Shown: piece after piece, positions 16,595 through 32,349 of the stretch | Layout: the number at the start of each line of letters is the position of its first letter | Position numbering within the stretch: position 1 is the stretch's first letter | IMG/VR virus record: IMGVR_UViG_3300042892_004016 | Coordinates: 32,001-96,000 of that record | From: a virus | Strand: one strand, 5' to 3' | DNA: 64,000 nt | Position numbers and translations under genes: made by a program | Notes under the pieces: generated by a model | Seen by the model: the letters and a program-made list of their open reading frames with translations, nothing else | Database searches by the model: none | What the model was told of the DNA's origin: nothing

Positions 16595-17608
16595 ATGAAC
16601 CTATTTAAAAAAGCAGCAATTTTCACAGATATACATTATGGACTTAAGAGCAACAGTTTACAGCATAATACCGATTGCGAGAATTTTGTAGATTGGTTTA
16701 TAGCTCATGCAAAACGTGAGGGATGTGAAACTTGTTTGTTTTTGGGTGACTTCAATCATCATCGTGCCAGTATCAATATTCAAACTCTGCAGTTTGGGTT
16801 GCGTGCCTTAGAAAAACTAAGTGCAAACTTTGATACTGTGTACTTTATTCCAGGCAATCATGATTTATATTATCGTGATCGCAGAGACATTCACTCAGTT
16901 GAGTGGGCCAAGCATTTGCCAAATGTAGTTATTGTCAATGACTGGTTCACTCAGGGTGATGTTACTATTGCTCCCTGGTTAGTTCAAGACGATCATAAAA
17001 AATTACCCAAGCTAAGTGGCAAGTATCTGTTTGGTCACTTTGAGTTGCCCAACTTCTACATGAACGCCAAAGTTCTGATGCCTGACCACGGTGAGATCAG
17101 AGATGAGCACATGAGTGGTTTTGAAATGGCCTTCAGTGGACATTTTCATCATCGCCAAGCCAGAAAAAACATCTGGTACATTGGCAATGCCTTCCCACAC
17201 AACTATGCTGATGCAGGCGACGATGCTCGTGGCATGATGATATTGGATTGGGGACAAGAGCCTGAGTTTCACAGCTGGCCCAATCAACCACTGTTTCGTG
17301 TACACAAACTCAGCGATGTGCTGGAAAATCCTGAGGGATTGTTGTTGCCCAACAGTCATGTTAGAGTACACTTGGATATTGATATCAGCTACGAAGAAGC
17401 AAACTTTATACGAGAAACTCTGATTCCAAAACATAATTTACGTGAAATGGCATTGATTCCCATGAAACTGGATCAACTTGAAGCAGGAAACGACATTGCT
17501 GGATTGAGATTTGAGGGAGTTGATCAGATCGTTACTGAAAGCATTAACGCTATTGAAAGTGATAGCTTTGACAAAAAAATACTGCTGGATATCTATAATA
17601 ACCTATGA
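16595..17608 (+). CDS. gp47: Recombination endonuclease subunit (Mre11/SbcD-like metallophosphoesterase)
   Basis: DIH, GD, GNHD, GHFE and SGHFH calcineurin-like phosphoesterase motifs. Confidence 0.92.
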   Translation: MNLFKKAAIFTDIHYGLKSNSLQHNTDCENFVDWFIAHAKREGCETCLFLGDFNHHRASINIQTLQFGLRALEKLSANFDTVYFIPGNHDLYYRDRRDIHSVEWAKHLPNVVIVNDWFTQGDVTIAPWLVQDDHKKLPKLSGKYLFGHFELPNFYMNAKVLMPDHGEIRDEHMSGFEMAFSGHFHHRQARKNIWYIGNAFPHNYADAGDDARGMMILDWGQEPEFHSWPNQPLFRVHKLSDVLENPEGLLLPNSHVRVHLDIDISYEEANFIRETLIPKHNLREMALIPMKLDQLEAGNDIAGLRFEGVDQIVTESINAIESDSFDKKILLDIYNNL

Positions 17609-19371
17609 GCCTAACACTCAAGAACATAACACTTAAAAACTTTTTAAGCATTGGAGCTGTGTGCCAAGCAGTTAACTTTGATCAACAAGAACTGACCTTG
17701 ATTCTGGGTGAGAACCTTGACTTGGGTGGTGACGGTGCTCGCAATGGCACAGGCAAAACCAGTTTGATTCAGGCATTGAGCTATGCACTGTTTGGCATAC
17801 CAATCAACAATATTAAAAAAGACAATTTAGTAAACAGAACCAATGGTAAGAACATGGTGGTGACACTGGAGTTCAATATCAGTGGCGTTGAATACAAGAT
17901 TGTGCGCGGTCGCAAGCCCAATATTCTACAGTTCTTTATCAATGACCTAGAGCATTTGTCGCAGGACTCTGCTCAGGGTGACAGTAGAGAAACTCAAGTG
18001 GAGATTGAGCGAGTTATCAACATGAGTTCCGATATGTTCAAGCACATTGTTGCACTGAACACATACAGCGAACCGTTTCTGGCCATGCGGGCCAATGATC
18101 AACGTAACATCATTGAACAACTGTTGGGCATCACACTGTTGAGTGAGAAGGCCGAAACTATCAAGAACCTGATCAAAGAATCCAAAGACAACATACAACA
18201 AGAAGAATACAAGGTCAGAGCAATTGAAGAAGCCAACAAAAGAATCATTGAACAAATTGAGGGACTGGCCAGAAGACAGAGACTGTGGGTAACACGACAT
18301 CAAGAAGATGTGGTTGGCCTGCAGTCTGCCATTGATGAACTGTTAAAGATAGATATCACCAGTGAGATTCAAGCACATGCTGCACTGGATGTGTACAATC
18401 AGCGGGCTAAAGATATCAAGGACGTAAATGCGCTCAAGGTCAGAGCAGAACTGGACTTGACCAAAGAGTCTAAGACTCTGGACAAGTTAAAATCTGAAGT
18501 TACTTCATTGCAGAAACATGAATGCTATGCCTGTGGTCAAGATTTGCATGACGAAAAGCATGAACAGGTGTTGGCTGCTAAACAAAGGGCACTAGAAGAG
18601 GCTGCTCAGCAAGTGGTGACTACCAGTGGACAATTGGTAGAATTAACTCAGGCACTGGATGAATTGGGCGTGTTGGGCCTGGCTCCAGTGGTATTTTACG
18701 ATGACAAAGAAGATGCTATTCAACATCGCAGCAGTATTCAGAATCTTCAAGATCGTCTGGCCGCCAAAGTGGCAGAAACTGATCCATACAGCGAACAGAT
18801 TTCAGATATGGAAAACCAAGCACTACAGGCCATTGACTTTGACAAGATCAATCAGATAACCAAAACAATGGAACATCAGAAGTTCTTGTTAGATTTGTTA
18901 ACCAGCAAAGATTCGTTTGTTCGTAAAAAGATCATTGATCAAAATCTGTCTTTCTTGAATTCCAGACTCACACACTATCTGGATCGTATTGGCCTGCCTC
19001 ACCAAGTGGTTTTCTTAAATGACTTGTCAGTTGAGATTACTGAACTGGGTCGTAGTTTAGACTTTGGTAACTTGAGCCGCGGCGAGGCCAACAGACTGAT
19101 CTTGGGATTGAGTTTTGCATTCCGTGATGTGTGGGAGAATCTGTACAGTCCCATTAACACACTGTTCATTGATGAATTGATTGACAGTGGACTAGACTCC
19201 ATGGGAGTTGAAAACAGCCTAGCAGTATTGAAGTCCATGTCCAGAACCAGAAACAAATCCATATGGTTGGTCAGTCACCGTGAAGAACTTGCAGGCCGAG
19301 TTCACAGCGTATTGCGAGTAACCAAAGAAAATGGATTCACAACATACAGTACCAGTACCGAAATGGAGTAA
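17605..19371 (+). CDS. gp46: Recombination ATPase subunit (Rad50/SbcC-like)
   Basis: Walker A NGTGKT, coiled coils with CYAC zinc hook, signature LSRGE, Walker B LFIDE, H-loop VSH. Confidence 0.93.
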   Translation: MSLTLKNITLKNFLSIGAVCQAVNFDQQELTLILGENLDLGGDGARNGTGKTSLIQALSYALFGIPINNIKKDNLVNRTNGKNMVVTLEFNISGVEYKIVRGRKPNILQFFINDLEHLSQDSAQGDSRETQVEIERVINMSSDMFKHIVALNTYSEPFLAMRANDQRNIIEQLLGITLLSEKAETIKNLIKESKDNIQQEEYKVRAIEEANKRIIEQIEGLARRQRLWVTRHQEDVVGLQSAIDELLKIDITSEIQAHAALDVYNQRAKDIKDVNALKVRAELDLTKESKTLDKLKSEVTSLQKHECYACGQDLHDEKHEQVLAAKQRALEEAAQQVVTTSGQLVELTQALDELGVLGLAPVVFYDDKEDAIQHRSSIQNLQDRLAAKVAETDPYSEQISDMENQALQAIDFDKINQITKTMEHQKFLLDLLTSKDSFVRKKIIDQNLSFLNSRLTHYLDRIGLPHQVVFLNDLSVEITELGRSLDFGNLSRGEANRLILGLSFAFRDVWENLYSPINTLFIDELIDSGLDSMGVENSLAVLKSMSRTRNKSIWLVSHREELAGRVHSVLRVTKENGFTTYSTSTEME

Positions 19372-19417
19372 AATATGCTGCTATTCCAAATAAAATTTCA
19401 ATAGCGCATAAGTAAGA

Positions 19418-19423
19418 TAAGTA
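19418..19423 (+). promoter_or_regulatory. Putative late promoter (GA)TAAGTA, 5 nt before ATG (leaderless)
   Basis: TAAGTA-taaac-ATG; a second CATAAGTA lies 9 nt upstream. Confidence 0.5.
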
Positions 19424-19428
19424 TAAAC

Positions 19429-19986
19429 ATGAGTTCACCGAGCAAAAATAAAGGATCAGGATTTGAGCGAGAAATCGCCAAGTTCTTGTCTGAATCATAC
19501 AGCGAAAGTTTCATCAGAGCACCGGGATCTGGAGCGTATGTGGGAGGTAAGAATCAAAGCCGCACTGAAGTTTTGCATGCTGGTCAGATTCGCAGTTTCA
19601 AAGGGGACATCGTTCCCGGAGAAAGCTTTCCCAAATTCAATGCTGAATGCAAGTTCTACGGTGATTTCACATTCCACTTATTACTCAACGGAGAACATAA
19701 GGTTTTAGATAGTTGGATAGAGCAACTGCTAGCAGTGGCTGATCCAGGTGATCTAAATATACTTTTTATGAAATTTAACAGGAAAGGTCGTTATGTACTT
19801 GTACAGTGCGAGCTTACTTGGATCACTGATAATTTCTTCTTTTACGGAAGTAAAAAACACGGTGATTGGTACCTTATGGAATTTGATAGTTTTTTCAAGC
19901 ACAACACAGATTTAGTTAAATTATACTCCGGCTCACCAGACACCACGTCAATTCACAGCAGTACACCCAACACAGAAGTAGTTTAA
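19429..19986 (+). CDS. Holliday junction resolvase-like PD-(D/E)xK nuclease (Hjc type)
   Basis: KNKGSGFERE...R.PGSGA...GDI...ECK motif pattern; follows gp46. Confidence 0.75.
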   Translation: MSSPSKNKGSGFEREIAKFLSESYSESFIRAPGSGAYVGGKNQSRTEVLHAGQIRSFKGDIVPGESFPKFNAECKFYGDFTFHLLLNGEHKVLDSWIEQLLAVADPGDLNILFMKFNRKGRYVLVQCELTWITDNFFFYGSKKHGDWYLMEFDSFFKHNTDLVKLYSGSPDTTSIHSSTPNTEVV

Positions 19987-20009
19987 ACACAACAGCAGTA
20001 AAAAAATTA

Positions 20010-20475
20010 GTTTGATCGAGGTTCCTCGATCCTCCTTGAGTCAGCCGGGGTAAGGCCCGTAGCCGATGGATCTGGAGTATGCCCAAGAGTGATCTTGGGG
20101 AATACCGAGAGGGCAATCAATATAGGGAACCCTCAATGAGTTTATAGTACACTTTGTCTTGAAACTATAAAACATGCGTCGCGGAAGAATTGTGTTAGGC
20201 ACAATAGCTTCACTACAGTCCCATCAAACTTTACAGAGCGACCGGTGGCGAATAATAGCAGAAAAGAGCTGATTATTCGGGGAACAGACAACAAAGGATG
20301 ATGGTCATGGCATGTTTATGATTTTTCCATTGGTAGTGCTTAATAGCACTACCATGGCTTCTAATCGGCATGTGAGTCTTAATACTAATAAGATACCAGT
20401 AAATTAATCCCGAACATATGAGTGAGTGAAACGAACGAATAGAGAAGGGATTAGATGAGCGTTAGCTCATCTCTA
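20010..20475 (+). ncRNA. Candidate large structured non-coding RNA and/or ssDNA origin element (unassigned)
   Basis: About 12 helices in 460 nt with no credible ORF. Examples: GATCGAG/CTCGATC 20014-20031; CCCAAGA-GTGA-TCTTGGG 20082-20099; TTTATAGT/ACTATAAA 20141-20171; ATTGTG/CACAAT 20189-20205; CCATCA/TGATGG 20221-20304; CGAATAAT/ATTATTCG 20249-20279; TGGTAGTGCT/AGCACTACCA 20331-20354; AGATGAGC/GCTCATCT 20453-20472. Confidence 0.6.
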
Positions 20476-20519
20476 GAGTAGTAAATGATATAACCCATTA
20501 GCATATGGTGTGCTATGGC

Positions 20520-20696
20520 TTAGAAGAATGGCATCTGTGATTTCTTGGTAGTCTCTAAGTTTTCTTCAATAATCTCATTAAGTGATACCAGTTCGTCAGG
20601 ACTCATGTTCAACACATCAGTATAAGATACTGACCCGCGCATGTACCAGGCTATTCTTTGTGCGTTCTTTTTGATAGCCTTTACGTCTTTCTCCAT
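20520..20696 (-). CDS. gp51: Small baseplate hub assembly chaperone, gp51-like (58 aa; probably made as a -1 frameshift extension of the gp26-like gene)
   Basis: Below the ORF-track cutoff: MEKDVKAIKKNAQRIAWYMRGSVSYTDVLNMSPDELVSLNEIIEENLETTKKSQMPFF. Frame stays open upstream to 20756, overlapping the end of the gp26-like ORF. Confidence 0.65.
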   Translation of the reverse strand: MEKDVKAIKKNAQRIAWYMRGSVSYTDVLNMSPDELVSLNEIIEENLETTKKSQMPFF

Positions 20697-20706
20697 ATTT
20701 TCAACC

Positions 20707-20756
20707 AGCTTCGTTATACCCGGGGAGTCTAGGTATAGAAGCTTTAGCCGAAAAAA
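20707..20756 (-). promoter_or_regulatory. Programmed -1 ribosomal frameshift signal (T TTT TTC + 6-nt spacer + stem-loop)
   Basis: Heptamer at 20756-20750; stem AGCTTC-TATACC/GGTATA-(AC)-GAAGCT at 20743-20707. Confidence 0.7.
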
Positions 20757-21574
20757 TCGCTTACATTCAACGTGAATGGTTGATCATATTCATGTTGACA
20801 ACTGTTACATGCGATATGCAACGGCTTGGTCTGCGTAGTCTCTCTTAGTGCCACACTGCGATCTTTGATCATATCAAACGTGTTCTTGTCAGTGTTGTAC
20901 AAGAAATCCAGTATGTATGGCTTTTCAGTAACCACTAGTTCTGGTGTGGCAATGTATTCAATGGTATTGGCCAGTACTTCTACCGTGGAATCAGATATGA
21001 TCTTCAGTGCTTCACTTGTTCTTTTTTCTTTATCTGCTCCTTCTTCCATGGCGCTGATACTGTAGAACAGCTTTTGCATCTCAAACTGCTTGATGGTACT
21101 GGCAGTGAGTTCTTTGAATGACAGTGATTTGAACTTGATTTTGAGATCGTTGATATGCAGTGGAATCTCATAATCACCGGGTACAAAGTTGTTGAGTACA
21201 ATACTCAAACTAACGCCATATTGTGCTGTTTCGCTGCAGCTGGGGCAAGTGACTTCCATTTCCATTTCATTGCCGTTTGTTGCAATTTTGATAGCCACCA
21301 GTATGGCATCCAGATCAGTGCTGCTGATTGCCCAGGCATCGTGTATGCAGGGTACGCAACTGCGTATGATGTCTACAACTGCGCTGCCGTTGTACAGTGC
21401 GTCTGGGGTTTTGCTGGTAATCTCATCAATTGCCGTCATGGGATAGACTGGAATTTCTCCGGTTTCGGGCATAGAAATAGTGGCTGCAGTGTAGCCCAAG
21501 CCCCTGCTGGGCAATTTCAAATAGATGCCGGGTCTGCGAAAATACTGTTTTAGTGGGTTATGATCTATGCTCAT
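20744..21574 (-). CDS. gp26: Baseplate hub / tail assembly chaperone, gp26-like (276 aa)
   Basis: Y.KLPS.G, PMTA.DE, D.DAIL.AI.IAT.G, two CxxC pairs (CPSC, CNSC), C-terminal DFFG. Confidence 0.75.
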   Translation of the reverse strand: MSIDHNPLKQYFRRPGIYLKLPSRGLGYTAATISMPETGEIPVYPMTAIDEITSKTPDALYNGSAVVDIIRSCVPCIHDAWAISSTDLDAILVAIKIATNGNEMEMEVTCPSCSETAQYGVSLSIVLNNFVPGDYEIPLHINDLKIKFKSLSFKELTASTIKQFEMQKLFYSISAMEEGADKEKRTSEALKIISDSTVEVLANTIEYIATPELVVTEKPYILDFLYNTDKNTFDMIKDRSVALRETTQTKPLHIACNSCQHEYDQPFTLNVSDFFG

Positions 21575-31152: not shown

Positions 31153-32349
31153 ATGTCACAAGTACTCTTAGAAGGCCGTTGGGACGAAACCAAAGAAGCT
31201 CTGTTAGAAGGCTTAAAAGGTAATCGTCGTTCAACAATGGGTGTTATTTTAGAAAATACCCGTAAAAATTTATTACGTGAATCAAGTGCTGGCACAACTA
31301 CTGCTGGTAACATCGCAACACTTAACCGTGTTATTCTGCCTGTTATCCGTCGTGTAATGCCAACAGTTATCGCTAACGAACTAGTCGGCGTTCAGCCAAT
31401 GACTGGTCCAGTTGGACAGATCCACACACTACGTGTACGTTACGCACAAAGCATGACTGACAGTTCAGCAGCAGCTACTTCTATCACCGCTGGTGAAGAA
31501 GCACTGAGCCCATTCAAGATTGCACAAGCATATTCACGTACACCACAAGGCGCATCATCCGCAACCGGTTATACTGGTAACGATACTGCTGCTCTTGAAG
31601 GCAATGGCGGTAAACAGATCAGCGTACAAATCCTACGTCAAGCTGTTGAAGCTAAGTCACGCAAGCTACAAGCTCGCTGGACATTTGAAGCTGCACAAGA
31701 CGCTCAATCACAACACGGTATTGACGTTGAAGCAGAAATCATGGCCGCACTAGCACAAGAAATTACTGCTGAAATCGACCAAGAGATCCTCTTGAGCCTA
31801 CGTACATTAGCTACAACTGAAGAAACCTTCAACCAAGCTACTGTTAGTGGTACAGCTACATACGTTGGTGACGAGCACGCTGCTTTAGCTGTTCTGATCA
31901 ATCGTGTTGCTAACAAAATCGCTCAACGCACTCGTCGTGGCGCAGGTAACTGGGCAGTTGTTAGCTCAGCAGCATTGACTGTTCTTCAGTCAGCAACAAC
32001 ATCAGCTTTTGCACGTACCACAGAAGGTACATTTGAAGCACCTACAAACACCAAGTTTGTTGGTACATTGAATGGTGCAATGCGCGTGTTCGTTGACTCA
32101 TATGCTCCTGACACTACACCTGTATTGGTTGGTTACAAAGGTTCAAGTGAGACAGACGCAGCAGCATTCTATTGCCCATACATTCCATTGATGAGCAGTG
32201 GTGTTGTTCTGGATCCATCAACCTTCGAACCAGTCGTTAGCTTCATGACTCGCTATGGTTATATCGAGTTAACTAACACTGCCAGTTCGTTTGGTAATGC
32301 AGCCGATTACGTTGGTGAAATCGGAATCAGCAATCTTACATTCCAATAA
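31153..32349 (+). CDS. gp23: Major capsid protein (398 aa)
   Basis: RRVMP..IA.ELVGVQPMTGP.GQI..LR, VEAKSRKL.A.WT.E.AQD....HG.D.EAE, FYCPYIPL, TRYG motifs; strong SD AGGAG. Confidence 0.97.
   Translation: MSQVLLEGRWDETKEALLEGLKGNRRSTMGVILENTRKNLLRESSAGTTTAGNIATLNRVILPVIRRVMPTVIANELVGVQPMTGPVGQIHTLRVRYAQSMTDSSAAATSITAGEEALSPFKIAQAYSRTPQGASSATGYTGNDTAALEGNGGKQISVQILRQAVEAKSRKLQARWTFEAAQDAQSQHGIDVEAEIMAALAQEITAEIDQEILLSLRTLATTEETFNQATVSGTATYVGDEHAALAVLINRVANKIAQRTRRGAGNWAVVSSAALTVLQSATTSAFARTTEGTFEAPTNTKFVGTLNGAMRVFVDSYAPDTTPVLVGYKGSSETDAAAFYCPYIPLMSSGVVLDPSTFEPVVSFMTRYGYIELTNTASSFGNAADYVGEIGISNLTFQ

Follow-up and report, generated by a model that had tools for sequence, protein, structure and literature searches.

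A large pseudoknotted RNA, probably of a new family, behind a nuclease gene of uncultured giant freshwater phages

The question raised here is what occupies the one long gene-free gap (positions 19987-20519) in a 64,000-nucleotide (nt) stretch of viral DNA, namely positions 32,001 to 96,000 of the IMG/VR record IMGVR_UViG_3300042892_004016. This whole stretch is referred to as the window; the record behind it measures 115.9 kb and is estimated to be 28% complete. A preliminary description, made from the letters alone, had singled out the gap as the sole long non-coding stretch of the window and had proposed that it carries a functional RNA on the + strand. Indeed, all other gaps measure 137 nt or less when open reading frames (ORFs) running off the window ends are counted. 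We propose, with a probability of about 0.6, that the gap encodes a + strand RNA of a new, large structured family, which would act in trans through its fold and whose twin boxes, two short identical words, would be read by a common partner. That the stretch is an RNA structure under selection is close to certain. The family is confined to one clade of giant phages (350-525 kb), which are T4-like, uncultured and from freshwater.

The preliminary description had suggested that related contigs be examined for positional conservation and covariation, and both are present. A search with the protein of the upstream nuclease gene returned 412 related viral stretches, and in all 80 loci that were kept the element lies directly downstream of that gene, at 67-79% nucleotide identity. 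The neighbouring protein is 53-84% identical where the RNA is 67-79% identical, a relation that points to strong selection on the RNA. A motif search that made no use of the protein returned at least 120 stretches, comprising the element in the same synteny (117) and chance matches (three), and further sets agreed with this. Across approximately 240 related IMG/VR contigs the element occupies the same position, in one copy each and always in the order PDDEXK nuclease gene, RNA, converging baseplate hub gene; the nuclease gene lies directly upstream wherever the locus extends far enough, and the four complete genomes also hold a single copy each.

Covariation was assessed in an alignment (A2) of 59 diverse sequences that are less than 93% identical, in which 66 pairs were counted, pseudoknots having been added from mutual information; RNAalifold, applied to 59 sequences, returned 65 pairs and showed compensatory changes in 41. 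Standard pairs fill 96.5% of the paired cells of A2, versus 83.3% with shuffled partners and 29-42% with partners slid by one to three columns. Changes on both sides of a pair are seen in 45 of the 66 pairs, and none of five such measures was reached by any of 500 shuffles. The comparison with dinucleotide shuffles put forward in the preliminary description likewise came out in favour of a fold, on both strands (z = -3.25 for + and -4.55 for -), and folding energy alone therefore cannot assign the strand. The pairs themselves do so: because G-U and U-G cells (158) exceed A-C and C-A cells (35), and because the loop of one covarying hairpin reads as GNRA on the + strand (86 of 146 members), the + strand is the folded one, as had been claimed. 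A protein-coding gene was rejected, as there is no conserved reading frame and most alignment gap runs (1004 of 1207) are not multiples of three; the strand and frame of the longest open frame differ from one member to another, and the longest stretch free of stop codons has a median of 58 codons.

The RNA has a core of about 340 nt, or about 460 nt with its end hairpins, and a likely extent of approximately 20010-20475. Its parts are as follows, all on the + strand, with P denoting helices and PK pseudoknots.

20014-20031, +, P(-1), the 5' hairpin of 8 base pairs with a UU loop
20032-20077, +, 5' domain with the invariant CUCCUUGAG, closed by P1 and enclosing P0 and a conserved GAYGGAUCU strand
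20032-20035 with 20074-20077, +, P1 (CUCC with GGAG); a C to U change is matched by G to A in two unrelated lineages, L019 and L152
20046-20059, +, P0, a hairpin that varies with its pairing retained
20082-20099, +, P2, a hairpin of 7 base pairs with a GUGA loop and strong covariation (columns 116-120 with 181-184)
20103-20247, +, central domain, closed by P3 and holding P4, P5 and P6/P6a
20103-20107 with 20243-20247, +, P3, a long-range helix (UACCG with CGGUG) of four invariant pairs and a fifth that varies (UA 31, CG 15, AU 5)
20109-20134, +, P4, a hairpin of GAGGG/CCCUC plus a short inner helix; double changes in 4 of 5 outer pairs, 100% paired
20136-20175, +, P5, a hairpin with double changes in 10 of 11 stem pairs
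20178-20183 with 20237-20242, +, P6, in which 4 of 6 pairs covary
20184-20211, +, P6a, a variable hairpin enclosed by P6
20212-20236, +, nearly invariant internal strand of P6, ACUACAGUCCC...UUUACAG
20250-20278, +, P7, a hairpin with double changes in 9 of 9 pairs
20280-20291, +, pseudoknot acceptor strand 3' of P7, the partner in PK1 and PK2
20286-20291 with 20154-20159, +, PK1 (AGACAA with UUGUCU of the P5 loop); 5 of 6 pairs covary, e.g. UA 39, CG 18
20219-20222 with 20280-20283, +, PK2 (UCCC with GGGA); 4 of 4 pairs covary
20152 with 20218, +, PK3 (C with G; CG 42, UG 10, UA 7)
20309-20315, +, twin box 1, GGCAUGU (GGCAA in most members), changing in parallel with box 2 across lineages
20332-20357, +, P8 hairpin (stem 20332-20353; GGUAGUGC / GCACUACC) plus the palindrome CCAUGG (20352-20357)
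20360-20364, +, UCNRA pentamer (UCUAA here); UCAAA, UCUAA, UCCAA and UCUGA dominate in 151 members
20367-20373, +, twin box 2, GGCAUGU, at a distance of 58 nt from box 1 (relatives, 53-67 nt)

The three pseudoknots bring the P5 loop, the internal strand of P6 and the strand after P7 together in a closed three-strand junction, the 15-nt P5 loop (20149-20163) contributing 20154-20159 to PK1 and C20152 to PK3. A triple pseudoknot junction, combined with many unpaired nucleotides that do not vary, is typical of ribozymes and of the RNAs of ribonucleoproteins (RNPs). P8 is the best-conserved part of the RNA, with 4 of 7 stem pairs invariant in the 59 diverse sequences. At the 5' end, P(-1) shows compensatory changes in 5 of 5 aligned pairs of a separate 115-sequence alignment, one pair being GC in 45 sequences, UA in 24 and CG in 30. 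The UCNRA pentamer is a candidate T-loop.

Most of the local helices in the preliminary description were borne out by these comparative data, namely 20014-20031, 20046-20059, 20109-20134 (GAGGG/CCCTC), 20136-20175 and 20184-20211, together with two that had been drawn as 20249-20279 and 20331-20354 and that run from 20250 to 20278 and from 20332 to 20353. The hairpin capped by a GNRA loop is real and covarying, with limits of 20082-20099 in place of 20077-20105. The long-range helices of the preliminary description fared less well. CCATCA/TGATGG (20221/20304) is not conserved and clashes with the covarying pseudoknot formed by CCC (20220-20222) and GGG (20280-20282), while the helix of CATGTT and GGCATG is confined to the window's own clade, where the repeated boxes happen to hold the palindrome CAUG. 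The long-range helix P3 and the three pseudoknot contacts take their place. A structured element does lie within the proposed limits of 20010-20395; its 3' end is further out, at about 20472, beyond a G.A hairpin and a terminator-like hairpin.

Two further pairing proposals were dropped. CCUCCUU is not a free anti-Shine-Dalgarno mimic, since its CUCC pairs internally with GGAG and since the C-G to U-A change in P1 occurs in two unrelated lineages. The RNAalifold helix GCCG (20062-20065)/CGGC (20366-20369) shows no double changes and is broken in a divergent clade. A base of the strand ACUUUACAG (20231, A2 column 245) changes in step with U20103 (column 100), the first base of P3, and both columns are complementary to column 262 (20247). 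This pattern suggests a base triple or an alternative pairing, i.e. a possible switch.

The twin boxes are short single-stranded words that flank the nearly invariant P8, and they are identical to each other, not complementary. GGCAA stands at both boxes in 76 unique sequences, words of the AGCAA type (AGCAA, AGCAG, AGCAU) stand at both in at least five lineages, and GGUAA, GAUAA, AGUAA, GGCAG and GGCAUG are each found at both. Where box 2 is not GGCAA (29 unique sequences), about 20 of the 29 share a word of at least 5 nt with box 1, by a hand-corrected reading, and in the relatives L127, L192 and L251 and in the window the identity extends to 7-10 nt. An identical 7-mer is present at both sites in 8.5% of sequences, versus 2.0% of mismatched pairs. 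Most simply, a single partner would recognise both boxes, be it a dimeric protein or a nucleic acid with its gene elsewhere. No complementary partner of the boxes was found in the RNA, in its flanks, in about 5 kb on either side or by column-wise mutual information; the boxes as alternative partners of the 5' strand of P6 were rejected, since they do not covary with that strand.

Homogenisation of the boxes at the DNA level is the alternative. Direct repeats that lie 53-67 base pairs (bp) apart around an invariant inverted repeat and that drift in parallel do resemble homogenised recombination sites or target duplications, and DNA could thus be the functional form, either as folded single-stranded DNA or through direct repeats kept identical by recombination or by a mobile element. 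We give this very little credence: the family contains no member that lacks the segment between the boxes (an 'empty site'), no recombinase gene is adjacent, and the rest of the element is of RNA type in its one-strand tolerance of G-U pairs, its GNRA loops and its loop-strand pseudoknots.

In summary, the + strand folds into a compact structure of several domains: the 5' hairpin, the domain closed by CUCC/GGAG, the GNRA hairpin and the central domain closed by P3, in which the P5 loop and the internal strand of P6 are tied by three pseudoknot contacts to the strand 3' of P7. The 3' domain presents the invariant hairpin between two identical short boxes, followed by a terminator-like hairpin tail. 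On the reading of a trans-acting RNA, such a molecule may act in trans by virtue of its three-dimensional shape, be it as a ribozyme, as the RNA part of an RNP or as an RNA-only assembly like those of GOLLD and ROOL, and would not be a cis signal for the neighbouring genes. The two boxes, drifting in parallel, would be bound by a shared partner that is present twice, whether a protein dimer or a nucleic acid from another locus.

Three features bear on the ends of the RNA.

20000-20008, +, A-rich motif (AAAAAUU-like) shared by about 24 of 30 diverse members, with 5-7 nt separating it from the first hairpin
20405-20453, +, G.A-pair hairpin in the 3' tail, its pairing retained through changes in 30 diverse members
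20453-20472, +, terminator-like hairpin followed by a weak U tract, its pairing likewise retained through changes in 30 diverse members

The spacer between the core and this tail is AT-rich and variable. The covarying 5' hairpin, the A-rich motif and the terminator-like 3' hairpin make an RNA with its own boundaries plausible on sequence grounds. The A-rich motif is a candidate -10 promoter element or, on a read-through transcript, a candidate processing site. Together with the 5' hairpin it would allow the RNA a transcription start of its own, besides the co-transcription with the nuclease gene that the preliminary description had proposed. The motif does not recur upstream of genes elsewhere in the window, and a recurrent TAAAAATT promoter found no support.

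Several observations weigh against a trans-acting RNA. No sigma-70-like or T4 late (TATAAATA) promoter consensus was found at the RNA start. Contigs from four metatranscriptome runs (X15-X18) lie over the region and are uninformative on ends, strand and level. The boxes are not always alike: about 25 sequences combine UGCAA with GGCAA, and four combine CGCAA with UGCAA. Neither a catalytic motif nor a ligand or protein partner was identified, and the fixed site right behind the nuclease gene would be compatible with a cis role as well.

Such a cis role would make the element a 3' part of the operon formed by the gp47-like, gp46-like and nuclease genes, serving as a stabilising or processing 3' untranslated region or as a terminator between converging units. 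It is invariably found at the point of convergence, 25-50 nt downstream of the nuclease stop, and metatranscriptome contigs pass from the nuclease gene into the RNA, as does the record 8 contig of X17 (19608-20114); the absence of a promoter consensus also agrees with this explanation. X17 and X18 cover no more than the nuclease gene and the 5' 100-230 nt of the RNA, which is not evidence that the remainder is absent. We nevertheless consider a cis role unlikely, because known stabilisers or terminators need far less than a core of about 340 nt in which three pseudoknot contacts are formed and dozens of unpaired bases are invariant, because the tail already provides a terminator-like hairpin, and because the nuclease homologues of the cultured phages PA5oct and SCTP-2 do without such an element.

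The distribution of the RNA among cultured phages bears on the same point. When 50,697 cultured phage records were searched by blastn, neither the whole element nor its 3' half (at E 10) gave more than chance matches. The RNA is absent from PA5oct by both nhmmer and BLAST, including beside its nuclease homologue, and in SCTP-2, the closest cultured phage with the nuclease gene, the next gene follows immediately and leaves no room for it. The nuclease family thus exists without the RNA, which is an acquisition of the freshwater clade. The P8 motif was found in none of 185,579 bacterial and archaeal genomes.

The genes around the RNA in the window raise a further possibility, that of a replication origin.

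16595-17608, +, gp47/SbcD-like gene
17605-19371, +, gp46/SbcC-like gene
19429-19986, +, PDDEXK_15 nuclease of 185 amino acids (Pfam PF24608, E 1.5e-24; phrog_244), outside the RNA proper
19987-20519, gene-free gap carrying the RNA on the + strand
20520-20696, -, ORF of 58 amino acids
20744-21574, -, T4-type baseplate hub gene

In the window the nuclease stop lies about 27 nt before the 5' hairpin of the RNA. This gene, which had been described as a resolvase, encodes a PDDEXK_15 nuclease; in PHROGs, phrog_244 is labelled RusA-like resolvase. Genes of recombination and replication nucleases thus adjoin the RNA, and T4 origins lie near baseplate genes. The RNA could accordingly be an origin transcript or primer, an option also raised in the preliminary description, like ColE1 RNA II or the R-loops of T4 origins, with the G.A mini-hairpins, which resemble priming signals, acting on single-stranded DNA. 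It shares with those transcripts a structured length of several hundred nt that possibly ends near a replication and recombination module. They act via an RNA-DNA hybrid and contain simple stem-loops, however, and such a persistent hybrid is not what a compact tertiary fold with covarying pseudoknots and GNRA loops would suggest. No extremum of cumulative GC skew is seen at 20.3 kb, although T4-like phages often lack such a signal, there are no iterons besides the two short boxes, and the covariation pattern, with its G-U pairs, is RNA-like. We regard an origin primer as improbable.

We then have to ask whether the RNA belongs to a family that has been described elsewhere. With Rfam 15, the 64-kb window gave zero matches at the gathering score, and 19800-20800 gave only chance matches with E above 2; with E up to 10, no match recurred in 15 diverse relatives (16 members with the window). 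ARAGORN found no tRNA or tmRNA in the window, and a full-text literature search with two invariant strings returned one match, which is unrelated. The preliminary description had seen no hallmarks of tRNA, tmRNA, RNase P RNA or group I introns, and ARAGORN and the Rfam models are indeed negative for these at the locus. Its suggestion of a new large phage non-coding RNA is upheld by the lack of an Rfam match at any threshold and by covariation and synteny in relatives. The RNA thus represents a new family, which may figure among the unnamed candidates of a 2023 survey that put forward more than 10,000 structured RNA candidates from IMG/VR (PMC10690425).

The RNAs closest to it in kind, though not in ancestry, are GOLLD (RF01998) and ROOL (RF03087), neither of which gave a homology match in the window or in the 15 relatives. 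These non-coding RNAs are likewise large, heavily pseudoknotted and rich in unpaired bases that do not vary; phages or prophages carry them, and GOLLD came partly from lake metagenomes. They differ in size (about 580-800 nt, versus about 340-460 nt here) and match the present RNA neither in sequence nor in structure. Furthermore, and unlike GOLLD and ROOL, the RNA described here does not lie beside tRNA genes and is limited to one T4-like giant-phage clade and one syntenic position. Cryo-electron microscopy (cryo-EM) has shown GOLLD and ROOL to form RNA-only homo-oligomers (PMC12286853). By analogy, the only hint of such assembly here would be CCAUGG, the invariant 6-nt palindrome beside the invariant hairpin.

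The carrier phages are rich in tRNA genes: the four complete relatives (G001-G004, the records behind L053, L078, L048 and L159) measure 352-525 kb and hold 33-53 tRNA genes each, which form dense clusters distant from the RNA locus. A very divergent tRNA-related RNA is thus conceivable, either an RNase P-like ribozyme or a tRNA binder with codon-like boxes. Its size is near that of RNase P RNA (RF00010, RF00011), each box core is an NNY triplet with an invariant A after it, and there is the possible T-loop. A hairpin is followed by GGAA and by a long-range helix with ACAGA before its 3' strand, as in RNase P RNA, and GGAAUACCG...ACAGAGCAACCGGU around P3 presumably recalls CR-I, CR-V and a P4-like helix of that RNA, which is a lead only, the model tests being negative. 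We consider a tRNA-related RNA highly improbable. In 16 members and 5 genomes, RNase P models gave no match, even at E 10, and the boxes sometimes differ at the would-be first codon base. The topology differs as well, in that the P4-like helix does not enclose the rest and is followed by a conserved 3' domain of about 130 nt, and in that no P1/P2 pairing joins the two ends, the 5' domain closing on itself. RNase P RNA as such was rejected on the absent model match and the differing topology; RF00010 gave no match with E up to 10 in 5 genomes, and no bacterial-type RNase P RNA was found in the complete relatives G001-G004.

Transfer-messenger RNA (tmRNA, RF00023) is similar in its length of about 350 nt, in its several pseudoknots and in its occurrence in large phages, but the present RNA has neither the end pairing of the acceptor and T arm nor a tag reading frame. 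It was rejected, as ARAGORN was negative and the weak RF00023 matches in these genomes lie elsewhere, off this locus. Sub-threshold split matches of this kind occur outside the window at G000:C1:6704-7092 (-), with 29 bits for the ends plus a piece at positions 56-140, and similar places, spanning about 400-500 nt, were seen at G001:C1:83278-83774, G003:C1:146405-146801 and G002:C1:362003-362444. They may represent a divergent phage tmRNA gene that is distinct from the RNA studied here. A group I intron (RF00028) was rejected for want of an Rfam match; the RNA sits between a stop codon and a converging gene with no downstream exon, and is thus not an intron.

To our knowledge, few natural RNAs above 300 nt are this dense in covarying helices, pseudoknots and invariant unpaired bases. 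Those of such kind that have been explained are almost all ribozymes, RNP cores or, recently, self-assembling RNA cages. The present RNA has no catalogued relatives, is abundant in lake, river and estuary metagenomes and is universal in a clade that carries tRNA genes, and it therefore likely marks an as yet undescribed step in giant-phage biology. A more specific form of the trans-acting reading is a new ribozyme or RNA machine, in which the pseudoknotted core would be active and the boxes would engage two copies of a substrate, e.g. a tRNA anticodon loop or another nucleic acid. We find this doubtful; if true, the RNA would recognise its target twice, via a matched pair of guide-like elements. 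The parallel drift of the boxes is in any case an unusual evolutionary signature and a concrete handle on the partner, and thereby on function, and the depth of the alignment already suffices for structure modelling and for the design of cryo-EM constructs.

The DNA of the window is present in lake, freshwater, river and estuary metagenome runs. The closest cultured phages are jumbo phages, PA5oct first (gp46 47% identity), followed by Phosso, Atu_ph07 and SCTP-2. The carriers of this RNA are distinct from the 'moraphage' lineage (PMC12619734). Beside its nuclease homologue, PA5oct has a stretch of about 1.5 kb (75.7-77.2 kb of its record; L001 8000-9530) that holds only four ORFs of 38-50 amino acids and a 660-nt gap. 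This stretch is not homologous to the RNA and lies outside the four non-coding RNAs reported for PA5oct.

The spacing between the gp46-like gene and the nuclease gene (19372-19428 in the window) differs by 0.7-2.2 kb between relatives, and that between the nuclease gene and the RNA is constant. In metatranscriptome contigs, a near-identical strain has 771 additional letters at 19295-19415. The interval between these two genes is a hot spot for gene insertion. Finally, the 3' part of the nuclease gene holds an island, GACACCA(A/C)GTCA (approximately 19942-19954), that is retained in nearly all relatives, the rest of the C-terminal tail being very variable. It codes for D-T-K/T-S, and synonymous variants (ACC/ACA, TCA/TCC) are seen, so that a conserved peptide motif is more likely here than an RNA signal.
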